From assembly GCA_003707115.1 (NCBI GenBank), contig PPNB01000010.1, forward strand, positions 124,001 through 188,000: a stretch of 64,000 nt of DNA, written 5' to 3'. How positions within the stretch are numbered: the first letter of the stretch is position 1; each line of letters starts with the position of its first letter. The position numbers and the translations under genes were made by a program. Shown piece by piece: positions 56,306 to 62,813 of the stretch. Under the pieces are notes generated by a model. That model was not told the origin of the DNA. It worked only from the letters and a program-made list of their open reading frames with translations, and ran no database searches. Source of the DNA: Tortispora ganteri (Eukaryota).

Positions 56306-58873
56306 ATGGACACTAGCTCTCTTGCAAAGCTAGCCAGGGAGAGCCTTGACCCTAAACAGTCTGTCTCTTACTTGGTCAAGTCAGCTGCAGAATGCTATAA
56401 CGAGTATCGAAAACTGGCCGCAAAAACTAGTCCCACAGATTATCAGTATGAGATATACGCACAAGCTTTTATGAGGTACATACAGGCCTATACAATTGTT
56501 GCGGAACTAGTCACTGCAACCCCTGAGTACCTTCGAAACAAGATGGATCCTGATCTTCTCCAGTTATACCACGCTACACGAACGAAAATACACATGGACT
56601 ACGAAGTAGAGCGCATAAAAACTAAGATAAATATGCATTGTCAAAATCCTTCCTCGAATAACAATTCTGTTGAACCTCAGCAGCTACGAAAGTCTCAGCC
56701 TTCAAAGCCTCCACAGCCTCAACAACGCCCTCCGATACCTTCGGGGTATCCGCCCATTCCTAAAGATTATCCCCCGGTTCCTTCATCCCAGTCATCAACT
56801 GCTAAATCGGCATCTGATCCATTAAAGGAACGTTACAAAGAGCTGAAATCCTCCAAAGTTGTCTTTCCTACCGCTTCATTTGTAAATGCCGAAACTCTGA
56901 AGTCTTACCTCCTCAGGTGCCCCACCGATATCTTGCTATTGGATATTAGACCTAGAGAAGAATTTGAATATCGACACATAAAAGCTCCTAATGTTGTGTG
57001 CATAGAACCTTTTATTGTTGCAAGCGATGCAACTGACTCGCAACTTGAAGATTCTCTTCTGCTATCTCCAGAAAATGAGCAAGCTCTTTTTTCGAACAGA
57101 AACACCTTCGAGCTTGTAGTGTTATACGATGAAAACTCATCTTCTTATACTCAGTCTGAACCGGTAGAAAACATCAGACGGGCGATATTTCAGAATTGCT
57201 TTTCAAAGTATCTCAAGAGAATGCCGTGCCTCTTGGTGGGTGGCATCCAGGCTTGGATAGAGTATGCCCCAACAGAGCTTGAAAGTATTGCTCCTTCTCC
57301 TCCATCTCAACTGAAGAGATCTGAACCAATGGCAAATCTTGCGCATTCTTCCACTCATTTGTCTGTCAATAATGCTACTGTCGCATCAGGATCTGCGCGT
57401 ATCCCAACTATAAACCTAGATGTGCCATCTTCTAGTGCACCAAATTCACGGCCCTCCTCACCCTCTCGCTTTACTCGCATTGGGGAGTGGGTCTCTTCAC
57501 GAAGGTCCAGGTCTCCTTCGCCGTCTGGATTTGGTACTAGCTCCGGTAATAGTTCTTCTACGGAGAAGAACAAAATTAGTCACCATGTGAAACAATTGTT
57601 TGCTCGTGATGTTAACGATTACTTCAAACAGATCCCATTGACACCGCCGCCGAATAACTTGCGGGATACCCCTAAAAGAGCATCTTCTCTGCGCATCAGG
57701 CATCGACATAACGCTGATAACTCCTCGGGACCGGTTTCGTCGCAGGTTACTAGTCGACCGTTGGCACTAGTAGGGCTCCAAAACCTGGGTAACACTTGTT
57801 ATATGAACAGTATGGTCCAGTGTTTGGTAGGGTGTACACCCTTGGCAGAGGCGTTTTTGAAAGACTCATACAAAGAGTACATCAATCCTAACAACAAGAT
57901 GGGCACCAAAGGCGCTGTGGCTAGAGCTTTTGCTGATTTGACACGTGAGCTTTACGTGACGCGGAGTTCATACATCAACCCGAAATATTTCAAGAGCACT
58001 ATCGGACTTTTTGGATCTGACTTTTCTGGGTATGAACAGCAAGACGCACAAGAGTTTCTCATGTTTATTTTGGATGGGTTACATGAGGATCTGAACATTA
58101 ACGGAGACAAGCCTCGACTTTCTGAACTGACAGAAGAGCAAGAAAAGGTGCTTGAACATATGAGCGTCAGGTATGCTTCATTCCTGCAGTGGCAACGGTA
58201 TCTTCGTAGCGCACAGTCGATCATAGTTGATATATTCCAAGGGCAGTACCAAAGTCGACTGGAATGTCTTTATTGTCACGGCACGTCTACGACATACAAT
58301 GCTTTTGAGTGTCTGAGTGTTCCTGTTCCTGCGCGAAGCAGCCGAATGCGAGAAGTGAGTTTAGAGAGCTGTTTTGACCAGTTTGTTGCGAAAGAGATTT
58401 TGGACCGAGATGACGGATGGAATTGTCCGAGATGTAAAACTAAGCGAACTGCGTCGAAGAAGCTGACTATATCCAGACTACCTAACGTGCTAATTGTGCA
58501 CCTGAAGAGGTTTCAGACGAGTTATTCGGGATCTAAGAGCCAAAAGATAGATACTATGGTGAAGTATCCGGTTGACAACTTAGACTTAACACATTACTGG
58601 CCGGACTACGAAGAAGAAGACATGAAGTGGGCAGATGAGGCCAAGAAAGGCGATCAAGTTAACCCTTTTGTGTACAGTCTATTTGCGGTGGTGAATCATT
58701 ACGGAACGCTAAAAGGTGGGCACTATACTGCGTTAGTTCAGCGACCGGGCCATGGATGGTTTTCGTTTGACGATACACGAGTTAATGCTATTAATACCGG
58801 AATTGTGAACCAGAATGCATACGTGTTGTTTTATGTGAGACAACGCCACAAGTTTAATGCTGGTTCATTATAA
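56306..58873 (+). CDS. DOA4: Deubiquitinase Doa4/Ubp5-like (rhodanese plus USP domain)
   Basis: LLLDIRPR rhodanese domain; GLQNLGNTCYMN, QQDAQEF and HYGTLKGGHY USP boxes; ATG at 56306. Confidence 0.9.
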   Translation: MDTSSLAKLARESLDPKQSVSYLVKSAAECYNEYRKLAAKTSPTDYQYEIYAQAFMRYIQAYTIVAELVTATPEYLRNKMDPDLLQLYHATRTKIHMDYEVERIKTKINMHCQNPSSNNNSVEPQQLRKSQPSKPPQPQQRPPIPSGYPPIPKDYPPVPSSQSSTAKSASDPLKERYKELKSSKVVFPTASFVNAETLKSYLLRCPTDILLLDIRPREEFEYRHIKAPNVVCIEPFIVASDATDSQLEDSLLLSPENEQALFSNRNTFELVVLYDENSSSYTQSEPVENIRRAIFQNCFSKYLKRMPCLLVGGIQAWIEYAPTELESIAPSPPSQLKRSEPMANLAHSSTHLSVNNATVASGSARIPTINLDVPSSSAPNSRPSSPSRFTRIGEWVSSRRSRSPSPSGFGTSSGNSSSTEKNKISHHVKQLFARDVNDYFKQIPLTPPPNNLRDTPKRASSLRIRHRHNADNSSGPVSSQVTSRPLALVGLQNLGNTCYMNSMVQCLVGCTPLAEAFLKDSYKEYINPNNKMGTKGAVARAFADLTRELYVTRSSYINPKYFKSTIGLFGSDFSGYEQQDAQEFLMFILDGLHEDLNINGDKPRLSELTEEQEKVLEHMSVRYASFLQWQRYLRSAQSIIVDIFQGQYQSRLECLYCHGTSTTYNAFECLSVPVPARSSRMREVSLESCFDQFVAKEILDRDDGWNCPRCKTKRTASKKLTISRLPNVLIVHLKRFQTSYSGSKSQKIDTMVKYPVDNLDLTHYWPDYEEEDMKWADEAKKGDQVNPFVYSLFAVVNHYGTLKGGHYTALVQRPGHGWFSFDDTRVNAINTGIVNQNAYVLFYVRQRHKFNAGSL

Positions 58874-58956: not shown

Positions 58957-61405
58957 ATGTCTAGGCACCGCCTTGTTCGTAATCTAGACGTTAACGGTAA
59001 GTCTGAGTGCTCAAATATACATAAATTTTACAATCTAACAATAAGAATTACTTGAAGAAGACGAATACTACTCCGACGAACAGCAAGAAGAAGATCAGTT
59101 ATCTGCAGAGGACAAGGCCGCATTCCAATCCGCAGTACAACACGTATCTGATACTATTGCAGGATCTGGAATATCGCTTAAAGAAATCGAAGACGCAGTA
59201 TATTATTATTATTTTGATACTGAAAAGGCAATAAACTATTTGCTTTCTCAAAAGGCAAAAGCAGAGAAAAAAACTGCGCCCAAACCAAAGTCAACTTCTA
59301 AAGCTAAAGGTAAATATTTTACAATCTTCTGCTCAGAACCGACATCATTACCATGTCTAGCAAACTAGCTGCTTTAAAAGCTGCTAGGGCAAAGAACTCT
59401 TCCGATTCGGCCCCTGAGTCCAGCTTAGGACATGCTTTGAAAATGTTAGATAGACTGGAAATACGCTCTCCTACTCCTCCCCTCTTATCATCCAAGTTTC
59501 AGAAATACTCAAAATCAGCAGACTCAACGCGCACAAATTCAGAAAGAGTATCACTGTCCAGTGTAGCTACTTCGCGCTCTAATAGCTCTACTGCTATTAA
59601 CGAAATTGCCGCCTCTGAAGATGATCAGCCGCCAATCTCTCAGCCTCTTTTCGCGCTACCGTACCCTCGACAACATAGCCCTTCATCGCCTTTTTTCAAA
59701 GCTTTATGCATGCGCGCTGATGATAAGAGGACAATGTGTTCGCAGAGCGGCCCTTTCCTTTCCTACTTTGGTCTTTCGCTGGATGAACAGGCCAATATTA
59801 ATGATGCATTTTCCAAACCCAGCCCTGATGACACTGTGCTGAGCAATCGACGAAATTTTTAATATCAGCTTTGTATTCCTTTTCGTTTCCCCTTTGCACT
59901 GTACTAACGTAATAGATTCTACTTCTGGTATCGTTGCAAAAACGAAATCTCTATCTGTCGCAGACCCTAAATCATCCGAGAAACCTCCTAACACCACAAA
60001 ACATGCCAAAGTCGAGGATAAAACTCCTGTTCAACCAAAACCAAAAAAATTGAAGTATGACATACCCAAATTAATGGAATCTTTTACGGGCAGGAAGCCT
60101 TCTCTCTCGTTCGTTGTAATTGGACATGTTGATGCTGGTAAAAGCACACTCATGGGCAGACTTCTGTACGACTCAGGAGAGGTTGCGGAACGTACTATGC
60201 GCAAGTTTCAGAAAGAGAGCAGTGAAATTGGTAAATCTTCATTCTCTCTTGCGTGGGTAATGGATCAATCGGCTGAAGAAAGAGAAAGAGGTGTAACTAT
60301 AGATGTTGCCCAGTCCTCTTTCGAAACCCACAATGCTCGATTTACTGTTCTTGATGCCCCTGGACATAAGGACTTTGTTCCTAATATGATTGCTGGTACA
60401 TCTCAAGCCGACCTGGCACTGTTGGTAATAGATTCTTCTACAGATGCGTTCGAATCGGGATTCAAATCGGGCGGGCAAACTAGAGAGCATGCGCTGCTGG
60501 CCCGAAGTTTAGGATGTCGCAGAATTATTGTTGTTGTGAACAAACTCGACACTGTTGGTTGGTCTGAAAATAGATACACTAGCATTGTTGAACAAGTTAC
60601 TTATTTTTTGTCGCACATTGGTTTCCCTAAGAATTCCATTCGTGCAGTACCGTGTAGTGGACTCACAGGTGAAAATGTGGCAAAAAGAAGCACATTGGAA
60701 GCATTGTCATGGTACGAAGGCAACTCTTTGTTAACTGAACTTGATTCAAGTGTTCTGGTTATAAACCGGGATTACAACAAGCCATTGGCTATGTGCATTA
60801 ATGATATTTTTCGTGGAGGGGTTTCATCGTCTGTTGTTGCTGTCGCTGGTCGTATCCAGCAAGGATCTGTCCAACCGGAAATGGAAGTGACGATTTGCCC
60901 TACTCAGGAAACTGCTACTGTTAAAAGTGTGATGCTAGATGATGGAGATGATAGAGAATGGGCGGTATCTGGAGATAATGTTACCATTGAACTGGCGAAT
61001 TTATATGACTCAGACATAAAGGTGGGGGATGTTCTATGTTCTGCTAAACATCCGCTCAAAAGTGTTAACTCTTTTAAAGCACGGATTGTGACCTTTGAAA
61101 ACATGGCCTGGCCCCTTCTAGCAGGTGTGTCATTTGAATTAATTCGAGGACGCACGAATAGGAGTGCCAGAGTGATCAAGATTCACAGCATTTTGGATAA
61201 AGCTACCGGACAGGTTATTAAGAAAAAACCAAGGCATGTTGGATCGGGAATGGCAGCTATGGTGGAAATTATTGTGGATGGTCATGCTATGCCTATGACT
61301 ACATTCAAGGACAATAAGCAGCTTGGACGGATGATTTTAAGGAAAGAAGGAATGTCTATTGCTGCAGCTGTTGTTGACGAGTTAATTGAGAAAGACTATG
61401 AGTAA
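58957..61405 (+). CDS. HBS1: Hbs1 translational GTPase, three exons (58957-58996, 59046-59309, 59916-61405; 597 aa)
   Basis: Exon 1 MSRHRLVRNLDVN; intron 1 GTAAGT..TCTAAC..AAG (49 nt); exon 2 is the HBS1_N domain (EIEDAVYYYYFDTEKAINYLL); intron 2 GTAAAT 59310..TACTAAC 59902..TAG 59915, phase-matched; exon 3 GHVDAGKST, DAPGH, NKLD. Confidence 0.92.
59353..59862 (+). CDS. SKI7: Ski7-like SKI/exosome-binding cassette nested in HBS1 intron 2 (alternative terminal exon or nested ORF)
   Basis: 169-codon ORF wholly inside the intron: SKLAALKAAR near the start, PSSPFF internally, AFSKPSPDDTV at the end, then TAA. Confidence 0.75.
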   Translation: MSSKLAALKAARAKNSSDSAPESSLGHALKMLDRLEIRSPTPPLLSSKFQKYSKSADSTRTNSERVSLSSVATSRSNSSTAINEIAASEDDQPPISQPLFALPYPRQHSPSSPFFKALCMRADDKRTMCSQSGPFLSYFGLSLDEQANINDAFSKPSPDDTVLSNRRNF

Positions 61406-61463: not shown

Positions 61464-62813
61464 CTAGCCGAAGATGCGTAAATCGTCATTGAATTCTTCT
61501 TCTGGAACACTTTCTGCAACATCAGATGCGCTTTGGACCTTTTCGTTTATGAGGTCACGGCGCTGACCGAGAATTCCAGCCAAAAAATCTGTAATACGCT
61601 CATTCGACCATTCTTTGGGGTTTTTCCGCGGGGCATCGAAGTTGGCCAGTGCATCTTGAGTTTTATGGTCGAGCACTCTTCCCTTAGAGTGCTTAACTTT
61701 CTGGCGATCTTTTGGCTTGTTCTGTTTTTCGTTTACCCACTGCACAGATGTAGGCACTGATTCTGATGACTTGCTATCGACGAAAGCCCTCAGAAGAGAC
61801 TTATAGAAATCCGTATCATCGAAGACCATTTGCGGGTCCTTGCCGTCTATTTTGAGACCTGATCTATTAATGCGAGCCCGCTTTATCAGTCTATCCATGT
61901 CTGAGAGGACATTGGCAACCTGAGCAGAAGCAGGCTGATTAATGGCTTTAAATTTTGAGCCGGAGAGCGTAGATGCGCCGGAGAAGTCTTGTATACGTTT
62001 TGACCACCTATTGAGAACTTCAGTTGTAATTAGTGAAAGAGATGAGTCAATGACTTTTGAATCTATTAATGCGTCATCTATAGAGTTATAATTCCGTTTT
62101 GAAGAAAGAGGCTGTATTTCAGAATCAATGTTGCGTAAAAAAGAGTGCCTGATTTCGGCAATGTGACATGCTAGAGAGAGGAGCTTTTGCTTTGATTCAG
62201 CTATATCGTCTTTCGATATCGAGTCCCCTATCGGCACCATATTTGATATAGTCAAAGCCTTCTGTATGTGGATTCGAGCATCTAATATTTTTTCGAAAGA
62301 AGACATTTGTGATTTCACGGCCCTGCCTTTCTCTGCGGCAGCTTTCGCAGAGTCTGACATTTTGTTAGTAACCGATTTTCTTTGCGCTTCAAGAAGTTCT
62401 TTAATTTGAGATCGTTCAGCGATGATATCTGCTTCGTTATGAGATGATTGTAATTGTGATTCTGACTCTGATTCAGAATTCGAGTTATTTGATTCAGATA
62501 TCGATTGATCGATTTCGCTGTCTGTGTTTTCAACTTCACTTTCTGAACTTCTATCGCTGATTTCACCCCATCCGCTCGTAATTTTTGTCTCATATGAATC
62601 GAATAGCTCTGCTCTTGAAGATTTATGGCCTGAATATTTCGGATCATCGATTTCGGTATCGCGCAACTTGCTTATGCCTACAGGCTCATAAGGGTCAACT
62701 TCACCGTCTGATAGTGAATCAGAATCAAATCCATCAAATCCCATATCTTCGTTCTCAATATCCACATCTTTGGCAGTATTCGATTTCTCAATAAACTGTT
62801 TTATAGAAACCAT
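61464..62813 (-). CDS. BFR2: SSU processome protein Bfr2 (AATF family)
   Basis: KYSGHKSSR, AEKGRAVKSQ...ARIHIQKAL, VFDDTDFYKSLL and SKGR motifs; ends LRIFG. Confidence 0.92.
   Translation of the reverse strand: MVSIKQFIEKSNTAKDVDIENEDMGFDGFDSDSLSDGEVDPYEPVGISKLRDTEIDDPKYSGHKSSRAELFDSYETKITSGWGEISDRSSESEVENTDSEIDQSISESNNSNSESESESQLQSSHNEADIIAERSQIKELLEAQRKSVTNKMSDSAKAAAEKGRAVKSQMSSFEKILDARIHIQKALTISNMVPIGDSISKDDIAESKQKLLSLACHIAEIRHSFLRNIDSEIQPLSSKRNYNSIDDALIDSKVIDSSLSLITTEVLNRWSKRIQDFSGASTLSGSKFKAINQPASAQVANVLSDMDRLIKRARINRSGLKIDGKDPQMVFDDTDFYKSLLRAFVDSKSSESVPTSVQWVNEKQNKPKDRQKVKHSKGRVLDHKTQDALANFDAPRKNPKEWSNERITDFLAGILGQRRDLINEKVQSASDVAESVPEEEFNDDLRIFG

Follow-up and report, generated by a model that had tools for sequence, protein, structure and literature searches.

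A predicted Ski7-type gene without a GTPase domain nested in an intron of HBS1 in the budding yeast Tortispora ganteri

The stretch of DNA considered here, hereafter the window, comprises 64,000 nucleotides (nt) of the genome of the budding yeast Tortispora ganteri (positions 124,001 to 188,000 of contig PPNB01000010.1, assembly GCA_003707115.1), and all positions below are counted from its first letter. At 58957..61405 on the forward strand it carries the gene HBS1, the second intron of which (59310..59915) contains an open reading frame (ORF) of 169 codons on the same strand (59353..59862), with its own ATG at 59353 and its own TAA at 59860-59862. This nested ORF is probably, though well short of certainly, a functional gene of a 'Ski7N-only' kind, that is, one which is predicted to specify a counterpart of the N-terminal region of Ski7 (Ski7N) and which lacks both the GTPase domain and the HBS1 N-terminal domain. 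An intronic frame that carries the motifs SKLAALKAAR, PSSPFF and FSKPSPDDTV and ends with the TAA at 59862 had been proposed earlier from the letters of the DNA (the original prediction); all three motifs are indeed found in the product of 169 amino acids (aa). This product would be a minimal Ski7 of about 18-19 kDa, which would link the Ski2-Ski3-Ski8 helicase complex with the cytoplasmic exosome in the way that recombinant Ski7N (residues 1-235) does in vitro.

First, the properties of the frame itself are those of a coding sequence. In the SKI7/HBS1 locus its place is between the exon for HBS1_N and that for the GTPase, and the longest open frame of intron 2, at 182 codons, is matched in no more than 12 of 20000 mononucleotide shuffles. 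Further, codon-usage log-odds trained on the window's other ORFs of at least 300 aa amount to 0.28/0.215 per codon for the nested ORF in its own frame, as against a gene reference with a mean of 0.29/0.205 and a standard deviation of 0.12/0.10 (204 windows of 169 codons), and lie between -0.94 and 0.003 in its other five frames.

Direct searches with the nested ORF as the query recovered no relatives. Pfam assigned no family to it, and a word-indexed protein search returned 63 candidates of near length, none at E<=0.01, and 1560 candidates of greater length, none at E<=1. An exhaustive phmmer search of 1,835,955,588 representatives likewise gave no match at E<=0.001, a metagenome scan produced 557 pattern matches with none confirmed, and the top score of 0.81 in the ESM Atlas is under the useful range. 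A Foldseek comparison of the AlphaFold2 model with the PDB yielded no match at E<=0.001, as is expected of a mostly disordered chain. A phmmer search of the PDB had the Ski7 G domain (4zkd) as its one match, with an E-value of 1.4, which was rejected as spurious since it lays the disordered middle of the ORF on the GTPase fold.

Profile comparisons, on the other hand, point to a specific relationship. Among the 120 best matches of the Hbs1 family, which include numerous annotated long isoforms, 63 carry, 5' of the G domain, both a SKLAAL-type motif (motif S1) and a PSPDD motif (motif S3), and a profile of these 63 S1-to-S3 regions matches the nested ORF with 54.4 bits and an E-value of 2.9e-15. 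The match is end to end, with positions 3-163 of the 171 of the hidden Markov model (HMM) aligned to residues 2-164 of the 169 of the ORF. The top score among 2000 shuffles is 12.8 bits, and none of the window's 79 other six-frame segments is found among the best 12 rows, all of which except the ORF are shuffles. The original prediction had suggested an alignment to the Ski7 motifs, and both S1 and S3 are recovered in their places in this 54.4-bit match. Because the 63 regions were chosen by the same two motifs that had flagged the nested ORF, a second profile was built from the 37 regions of Pezizomycotina only. It still matches with 43.6 bits (E 2.6e-12), which ranks the nested ORF sixth of 11 among the Ski7-type regions of Saccharomycotina plus Saitoella (range 23.7-87.9 bits) and above that of Lachancea dasiensis (26.0 bits). 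In the congener L. kluyveri the long isoform is described as complementing ski7-delta (PMC3597508; here and below, published systems are described after the accessible portions of the cited papers).

Inspection of the alignment of the nested ORF with 25 full-length long isoforms shows that residues S3, L8, F153, S157, P158 and D159 are invariant, and that K4, L5, A6, A7, A9, P156 and D160 are shared by at least 90% of the 26 sequences. Additionally, a profile of the nested ORF and seven Ski7-type regions finds only four matches among 177635 distinct PDB sequences, all four of them Saccharomyces cerevisiae Ski7. The best of these is 8qca_E (E 4e-9), where profile positions 2-201 are laid on Ski7 residues 1-223, and 5jea and 5g06 are also found. 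On account of the profile matches, the invariant motif residues and the PDB matches confined to Ski7, homology of the nested ORF to Ski7N appears very likely, and the ORF is, as judged by sequence comparison, the counterpart of Ski7N, collinear with S. cerevisiae Ski7 residues 1-223.

These results also bear on the supposition that the nested ORF is a chance open frame with coincidental motif matches. The empty pairwise searches of three databases are what such a supposition would anticipate. However, it has to contend with an open-frame length that is so seldom reached by shuffles, with end-to-end profile matches at E-values near 3e-15 and 3e-12 that have the motifs in the right order, with a codon usage that is frame-specific, and with the location of the ORF exactly where other fungi have Ski7-specific sequence (PMC3597508). 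Taken together, these make coincidence extremely improbable.

The motifs themselves allow functional predictions for the individual parts of the ORF. Motif S1, SSKLAALKAARAK (residues 2-14; 59356..59394, forward strand), corresponds to helix H1 of Ski7, is aligned to MSLLEQLARKR at Ski7 residues 1-12, and has residues S3, L5, L8 and R12 invariant in a further alignment (A2). In S. cerevisiae, H1 (Ski7 residues 1-12) is described as binding Ski3 (PMC10659929). At the other end, motif S3, AFSKPSPDDTVLSN (residues 152-165; 59806..59847, forward strand), has the form F-x4-PSPDD, resembles patch 4 of Ski7 and is aligned to Ski7 FNRPSPDDIIQSAQ. In S. cerevisiae this segment binds the C-terminal domain of Csl4 and starts the Ski2-contacting helix H7, the patch 4 residues being given as Phe207, Pro212, Asp213, Asp214 and Gln217 (PMC4942675). 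Ski7N as a whole is described as comprising Ski3-binding helices, exosome-binding helices and H7 (212-225), which contacts Ski2 (PMC10659929). The attribution of PSPDD to the exosome-binding segment, which was part of the original prediction, agrees with patch 4 naming Pro212, Asp213 and Asp214 (PMC4942675) and with the motif PFDFxxxSPDDIVKxNQ near the C-terminus of human HBS1LV3 (PMC5389692).

Between these two motifs the correspondence is fainter. The middle block SSPFFKALCM (residues 111-120; 59683..59712, forward strand) is placed by the HMM alignment, as a weak match, on the PSaFAs-type block of the long isoforms. A second block, FLSYFGLSLDEQ (residues 135-146; 59755..59790, forward strand), stands where other fungi have the FYLP block, which is IFVP in S. 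cerevisiae Ski7, and by manual count the spacing from its aromatic residue to the F before PSPDD equals that in Lipomyces. The alignments of SSPFFKALCM with the PSaFAs block and of FLSYFGLSL with the FYLP block have low posterior support, and the blocks could be assigned to exosome patches only by extension from Ski7, where hydrophobic patches 1-3 dock on the N-terminal domain of Csl4, on Mtr3/Rrp43 and on Rrp43/Csl4. AlphaFold2 predicts helices at residues 4-13, 25-36, 113-122, 143-154 and 158-168, and places confidence in the last 30 residues alone, where the predicted local distance difference test score (pLDDT) is 87-92. A complex prediction for ORF residues 85-169 with CSL4_YEAST, run without a supplied alignment or controls, scored 0.16 against a mark of 0.34 and speaks neither for nor against binding. 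As a separate feature, the nested ORF contains a perfect 12-nt inverted repeat, CCTCTTATCATC / GATGATAAGAGG, at 59481-59492 and 59719-59730, with its arms 226 nt apart.

The gene that hosts the nested ORF can be modelled with assurance. Exon 1 (58957..58996, forward strand; 40 nt) opens with the ATG at 58957, reads MSRHRLVRNLDVN and ends in phase 1. It is followed by the 49-nt intron 1 (58997..59045: GTAAGT ... AATCTAAC ... AAG), exon 2 (59046..59309), intron 2 (606 nt) and exon 3 (59916..61405). Exon 2 holds the HBS1_N domain (PF08938, Pfam E 2.3e-17, on 59048-59308), and intron 2 has its 5' splice site GTAAAT at 59310-59315, the branch site TACTAAC at 59902-59908 and the acceptor TAG at 59913-59915. 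Exon 3 encodes a linker with a KSLSV block and the translational GTPase domains (GTP_EFTU, Pfam E 2.2e-51; GTP_EFTU_D2; GTP-eEF1A_C), and closes with the TAA at 61403-61405. The joined exons amount to 1794 nt and are translated into 597 aa, with no stop other than the terminal one, and the protein has HBS1_N followed by an eEF1A-like GTPase with intact G motifs, GHVDAGKS and DAPGH being present. Its GTPase part has as its best database relative, at 92% identity, an annotated 597-aa protein of Tortispora caseinolytica NRRL Y-17796 (P0001), to which the spliced Hbs1 is 92.63% identical over its length, with 44 mismatches in 597 positions and no gaps; the first 13 residues are the same in both, and so is the exon junction KAK|DSTSG.

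Hence, the splice from GTAAAT at 59310 to TACTAAC and TAG at 59915, by which the original prediction joined HBS1_N in frame to the GTPase in 597 aa, has the right coordinates and reproduces the junction of P0001. The total length is also correct, with the amendment that intron 1, which the prediction does not mention, must be removed as well for a 597-aa frame colinear with P0001. The further statement that intron 2 exceeds the other introns more than tenfold in length holds against intron 1 of HBS1, the sole intron compared; a regular-expression scan for introns across the window gave 26 candidates, mostly within long ORFs, and was too permissive to be used. Neither motif S1 nor motif S3 occurs in the spliced Hbs1, and motif S3 was found in neither of the two Tortispora Hbs1 proteins (that of the window and P0001), although some short isoforms of other fungi (e.g., P0028, P0061, P0090) retain it.

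An analysis of the possible splices indicates that the nested ORF is not an alternative exon of this gene. On its upstream side the ORF frame is shut by a TAA at 59311-59313 within the 5' splice site itself (G-TAA-AT). The sole acceptor AG 5' of the ORF is at 59336, the only in-frame donors for it are the very poor GTTATC and GTCAAC, and no plausible splice from the HBS1_N exons to the nested ORF was found among the GT..AG pairs checked. A product similar to the human isoform, with HBS1_N and Ski7N and no GTPase, could be made if a cryptic 47-nt intron were removed from GTCAAC at 59290 to CAG at 59336. This pair is in frame and stop-free, its interval ends in CTCAG, its length resembles that of intron 1, and CAG 59336 might be a remnant of an ancestral proximal 3' splice site. 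However, GTCAAC fits the donor consensus at GT and position 4 only, no CTAAC-like branch site is present near the acceptor, and, with a third of random GT..AG pairs being in frame, two in-frame pairs are at the level of chance. It is therefore highly improbable that such an intron is used.

On the downstream side, 25 in-frame GT..AG pairs would connect the ORF to the GTPase exon, none of them with a consensus-like donor; the three that keep motif S3 use the donor GTGCTG, and their acceptors lack a branch site. The ORF instead ends nine codons after PSPDD, at the TAA 59860-59862, in a frame other than that of the GTPase. As no plausible splice leads to either the HBS1_N exon or the GTPase exon, the nested product would start at its own Met, which is placed exactly at motif S1, and would share no residue with Hbs1. 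Because of this lack of any shared residue, the pair is better described as a host gene and a nested gene than as two isoforms. The original prediction of a truncated Ski7 isoform like the human one accordingly stands as regards the in-frame stop ahead of the GTPase exon, and has to be modified in that no exons are shared with Hbs1, human HBS1LV3 keeping the HBS1 N-terminus. A potential intron 'zipper', in which 59300-59319 would pair with 59853-59872, was considered and discarded: its duplex energy of -9.6 kcal/mol was reached by 150 of 2000 shuffles, and stronger pairings can be formed with other parts of the intron.

The Ski7-specific region is consequently not fused to a translational GTPase fold, the TAA at 59860-59862 preceding the latter, with the caveat of a potential +1 shift in 59843-59862. 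Over these 20 nt (59843..59862, forward strand), which include a run of five T (T5, 59856-59860) and the TAA, the ORF frame overlaps the GTPase frame, in which no stop occurs between 59843 and exon 3, the branch site and the 3' splice site included. The ORF ends as AAT TTT TAA within the T5 run, an ending shaped like a +1 'shifty stop', and this is the only spot at which a single wrong base would alter how the locus is read. This raises the alternative that a Ski7N-GTPase fusion of about 683 aa, of the Candida albicans type, is the real product, with the stop being an assembly error in T5, a strain-specific 1-nt insertion, or bypassed by a +1 frameshift at UUU-UAA. [quoted passage not shown]

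Against it, 18-24 stop-free codons are estimated from the stop frequency to arise by chance in about 30-40% of cases at this composition, and the bridging peptide NISFVFLFVSPLHCTNVI is hydrophobic and encoded by the pyrimidine tract, whereas the linker after motif S3 in the relatives is hydrophilic. Further, a homopolymer of five bases is generally short for an assembly error, and no frameshift stimulator was found, although no search for one was made. Since the open codons are not unusual by chance and the bridging peptide resembles a translated pyrimidine tract, the truncated product is favoured and the fusion appears unlikely. A composite scheme may also be conceived, in which the locus has three products, namely Hbs1 from the spliced mRNA, the 169-aa Ski7N-only adaptor from the intron-retaining RNA, and the approximately 683-aa fusion by +1 programmed frameshifting at UUU-UAA 59857-59862. 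This is very unlikely; if true, the frameshift rate would set the ratio of GTPase-less to GTPase-bearing Ski7.

If the nested ORF is a gene of its own, it would be translated from an RNA that retains intron 2, and two routes to this may be proposed. In the first, transcription would begin internally, in exon 2 or early in intron 2, similar to what is described for C. albicans. The second is leaky scanning on the unspliced pre-mRNA, over a stretch of 393 nt between the Hbs1 ATG and the nested ATG (58960..59352, forward strand) that is free of ATG in any frame and runs from exon 1 through intron 1 and exon 2 into the beginning of intron 2. The expected number of ATGs in this stretch is 6.3, only 23 of 20000 shuffles have none, and windows of equal size without ATG number five of 1273 on the forward and six of 1273 on the reverse strand of the 64 kb. 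It may be a scanned leader of the nested ORF. Under leaky scanning, the choice would be made per transcript, with splicing at GTAAAT giving Hbs1 and retention giving Ski7. This donor lacks the G that is usual at position 5 of the yeast consensus. At position -3 the nested ATG has an A and the Hbs1 ATG a T; the start contexts of 26 ORFs of the window (A 10, C 8, T 4, G 4 at -3) are too weak a guide for leaky scanning to be weighed by them.

Several considerations count against a functional nested gene. The pairwise searches with the ORF being empty, its homology is argued from profiles of motif-selected regions, in which the blocks between S1 and S3 align weakly and the residues that follow PSPDD deviate from what is usual in fungi, with TVLSNR in place of VVLxAQ. 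The GTPase-less state hangs on a single frame offset, such that Ski7N would be fused to the GTPase, as in C. albicans, by the loss of one T from T5 or by a +1 slip of the ribosome. The AUG-free stretch was noticed post hoc, and its empirical frequency is about 0.4%. The ORF, its stop and this stretch are known from T. ganteri DNA alone, from which the expression, transcription start, poly(A) site and translation of the ORF are all inferred. Additionally, an intron-retaining mRNA would have a 3' untranslated region of about 1.5 kb beyond the nested ORF, and 3' untranslated regions of such length favour nonsense-mediated decay in other yeasts. Finally, a second SKI7 gene elsewhere in the genome is possible.

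Some of these points could be accommodated by a relic, that is, an ancestral Ski7-specific exon that was recently stranded in the intron and is now unexpressed or nonfunctional, with the Ski7 function lost or supplied by another gene. Such a relic would fit with the diverged tail, with the knowledge of the ORF from DNA and with the potential second SKI7, and also with the failure of the ORF to be spliceable to either neighbouring exon. However, all 169 codons are intact with a Met exactly at S1, the ORF frame, and no other, has a codon usage equal to that of genes in the window, the profile score falls inside the range of annotated Ski7-type long isoforms of other yeasts, and the upstream leader is free of AUG. 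Further, the T. ganteri Hbs1 has lost the motif S3 that the above-noted short isoforms of other fungi keep, as would be anticipated if the nested product were by now the only one to need S3. These features make a relic rather unlikely, and the functional nested gene is retained as the preferred interpretation.

Comparison with the known SKI7/HBS1 systems helps to place this arrangement. In the C. albicans clade there is likewise a single locus, with Ski7-specific sequence within the Hbs1 intron, and a Met at S1 serves as the Ski7 start, so that Ski7 is without HBS1_N (PMC3597508). [quoted passage not shown] Motif S3 of T. ganteri lies upstream of the 3' splice site, leaving its Hbs1 without S3, a further difference from that clade as described. 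The internal transcript start of C. albicans has been shown by rapid amplification of cDNA 5' ends (PMC3597508), whereas that of T. ganteri is a prediction from sequence.

The other end of the T. ganteri ORF finds its parallel in the human HBS1LV3 (HBS1L isoform 3), which is a GTPase-less Ski7 equivalent from the HBS1 locus (PMC5389692, PMC4942675). It ends shortly after PFDFxxxSPDDIVKxNQ, this motif occupying aa 609-625 of 632, with seven residues left, in the human protein (PMC5389692) and residues 153-165 of 169 in that of T. ganteri. However, HBS1LV3 as described keeps the HBS1 N-terminal region and uses an alternative exon, unlike the T. ganteri ORF, which shares no exon with Hbs1, and a reading of the ORF by eye did not reveal the RxxxFxxxL motif of the human protein with that spacing. 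The T. ganteri locus appears to combine a Candida-type start with a human-type end in a budding yeast, with no sequence common to Hbs1 and Ski7.

In L. kluyveri a single gene provides both the Ski7 and the Hbs1 function through alternative 3' splice sites, and motifs S1 and S2 come after the HBS1_N exon and before the distal 3' splice site (PMC3597508). Its long isoform has both HBS1_N and the GTPase (PMC3597508), in keeping with the original prediction that the Ski7 form of Lachancea keeps the GTPase, and motif S3 is described in both of its isoforms. In T. ganteri, by contrast, there is no usable proximal 3' splice site, and the two products would have no shared residues and the Ski7-type product no GTPase. 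With S. cerevisiae Ski7N (1-235), the nested product shares, besides the collinearity over 1-223, an H1/S1 helix at its very N-terminus and FxxPSPDD at its C-terminal end. In vitro, recombinant Ski7N 1-235 alone is described as bridging Ski238 and Exo10 (PMC10659929). Unlike the nested ORF, S. cerevisiae SKI7 is a separate intronless gene that encodes a C-terminal GTPase-like domain; identity to it is low outside the motifs, and binding by the T. ganteri product is a prediction by analogy. A truncated GTPase-less Ski7-like protein has also been proposed as a possible product in the basidiomycete species Cryptococcus neoformans as well as Ustilago maydis (PMC3597508). These are not budding yeasts, and there the product would be made through exon inclusion or skipping with the N-terminal exons kept, the mechanism being left open by the authors in the portions of that source considered here.

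In sum, the arrangements described to date include alternative 3' splice sites in Lachancea, Aspergillus and Saitoella, an alternative start at S1 with the GTPase kept in the C. albicans clade, exon skipping with a possibly truncated product in basidiomycetes, duplicated genes in Saccharomyces and Schizosaccharomyces, and a GTPase-less isoform that keeps the N-terminus in vertebrates (PMC3597508, PMC6143672, PMC5389692, PMC4942675, PMC7924785, PMC7491326). As a separate observation on this gene family, the annotated 840-aa model of Nadsonia fulvescens (P0023) looks like an unrelated upstream protein fused to Hbs1; S1 and PSPDD are both missing from the Hbs1 portion, and the Ski7-specific sequence of Nadsonia may also hide in an intron.

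Among cases of conserved alternative splicing in fungi, and of a split of function after gene duplication, SKI7/HBS1 has been studied best. If the nested gene is real and expressed, it would add a further state, in which the two functions are fully separated in one locus by a gene that is nested in an intron and shares no residue with its host. The division that S. cerevisiae obtained by gene duplication would then have been reached within a single locus, and the SKI7/HBS1 region would serve both functions in a Tortispora-like budding yeast (Trigonopsidaceae). [quoted passage not shown]

The literature search found no paper linking Tortispora with Ski7 and no GTPase-less Ski7 in yeasts, its matches being vertebrate or unrelated, although a 2018 survey of Ski7-like proteins may cover such a class. 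That survey, by Marshall et al. (PNAS), is said to distinguish four kinds of Ski7-like protein and may already include one that has neither N-terminal domain nor GTPase. The locus also points to a blind spot of annotation: no protein related to the ORF was found in the collections searched with it, and T. caseinolytica shows, among the matches listed, only the 597-aa Hbs1 model.

HBS1 is flanked by two genes. Upstream, at 56306-58873 on the forward strand, an 855-aa protein combines a ubiquitin C-terminal hydrolase (UCH) domain with a rhodanese-like domain (UCH E 4.6e-72, Rhodanese 5.6e-07), and its stop is about 85 nt 5' of the HBS1 ATG, which leaves very little space for an HBS1 promoter. 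Downstream, at 61464-62813 on the reverse strand and thus convergent, lies a gene for a 449-aa AATF/Che1-TRAUB protein, which is probably Bfr2-like and the stop of which is about 60 nt from that of HBS1.

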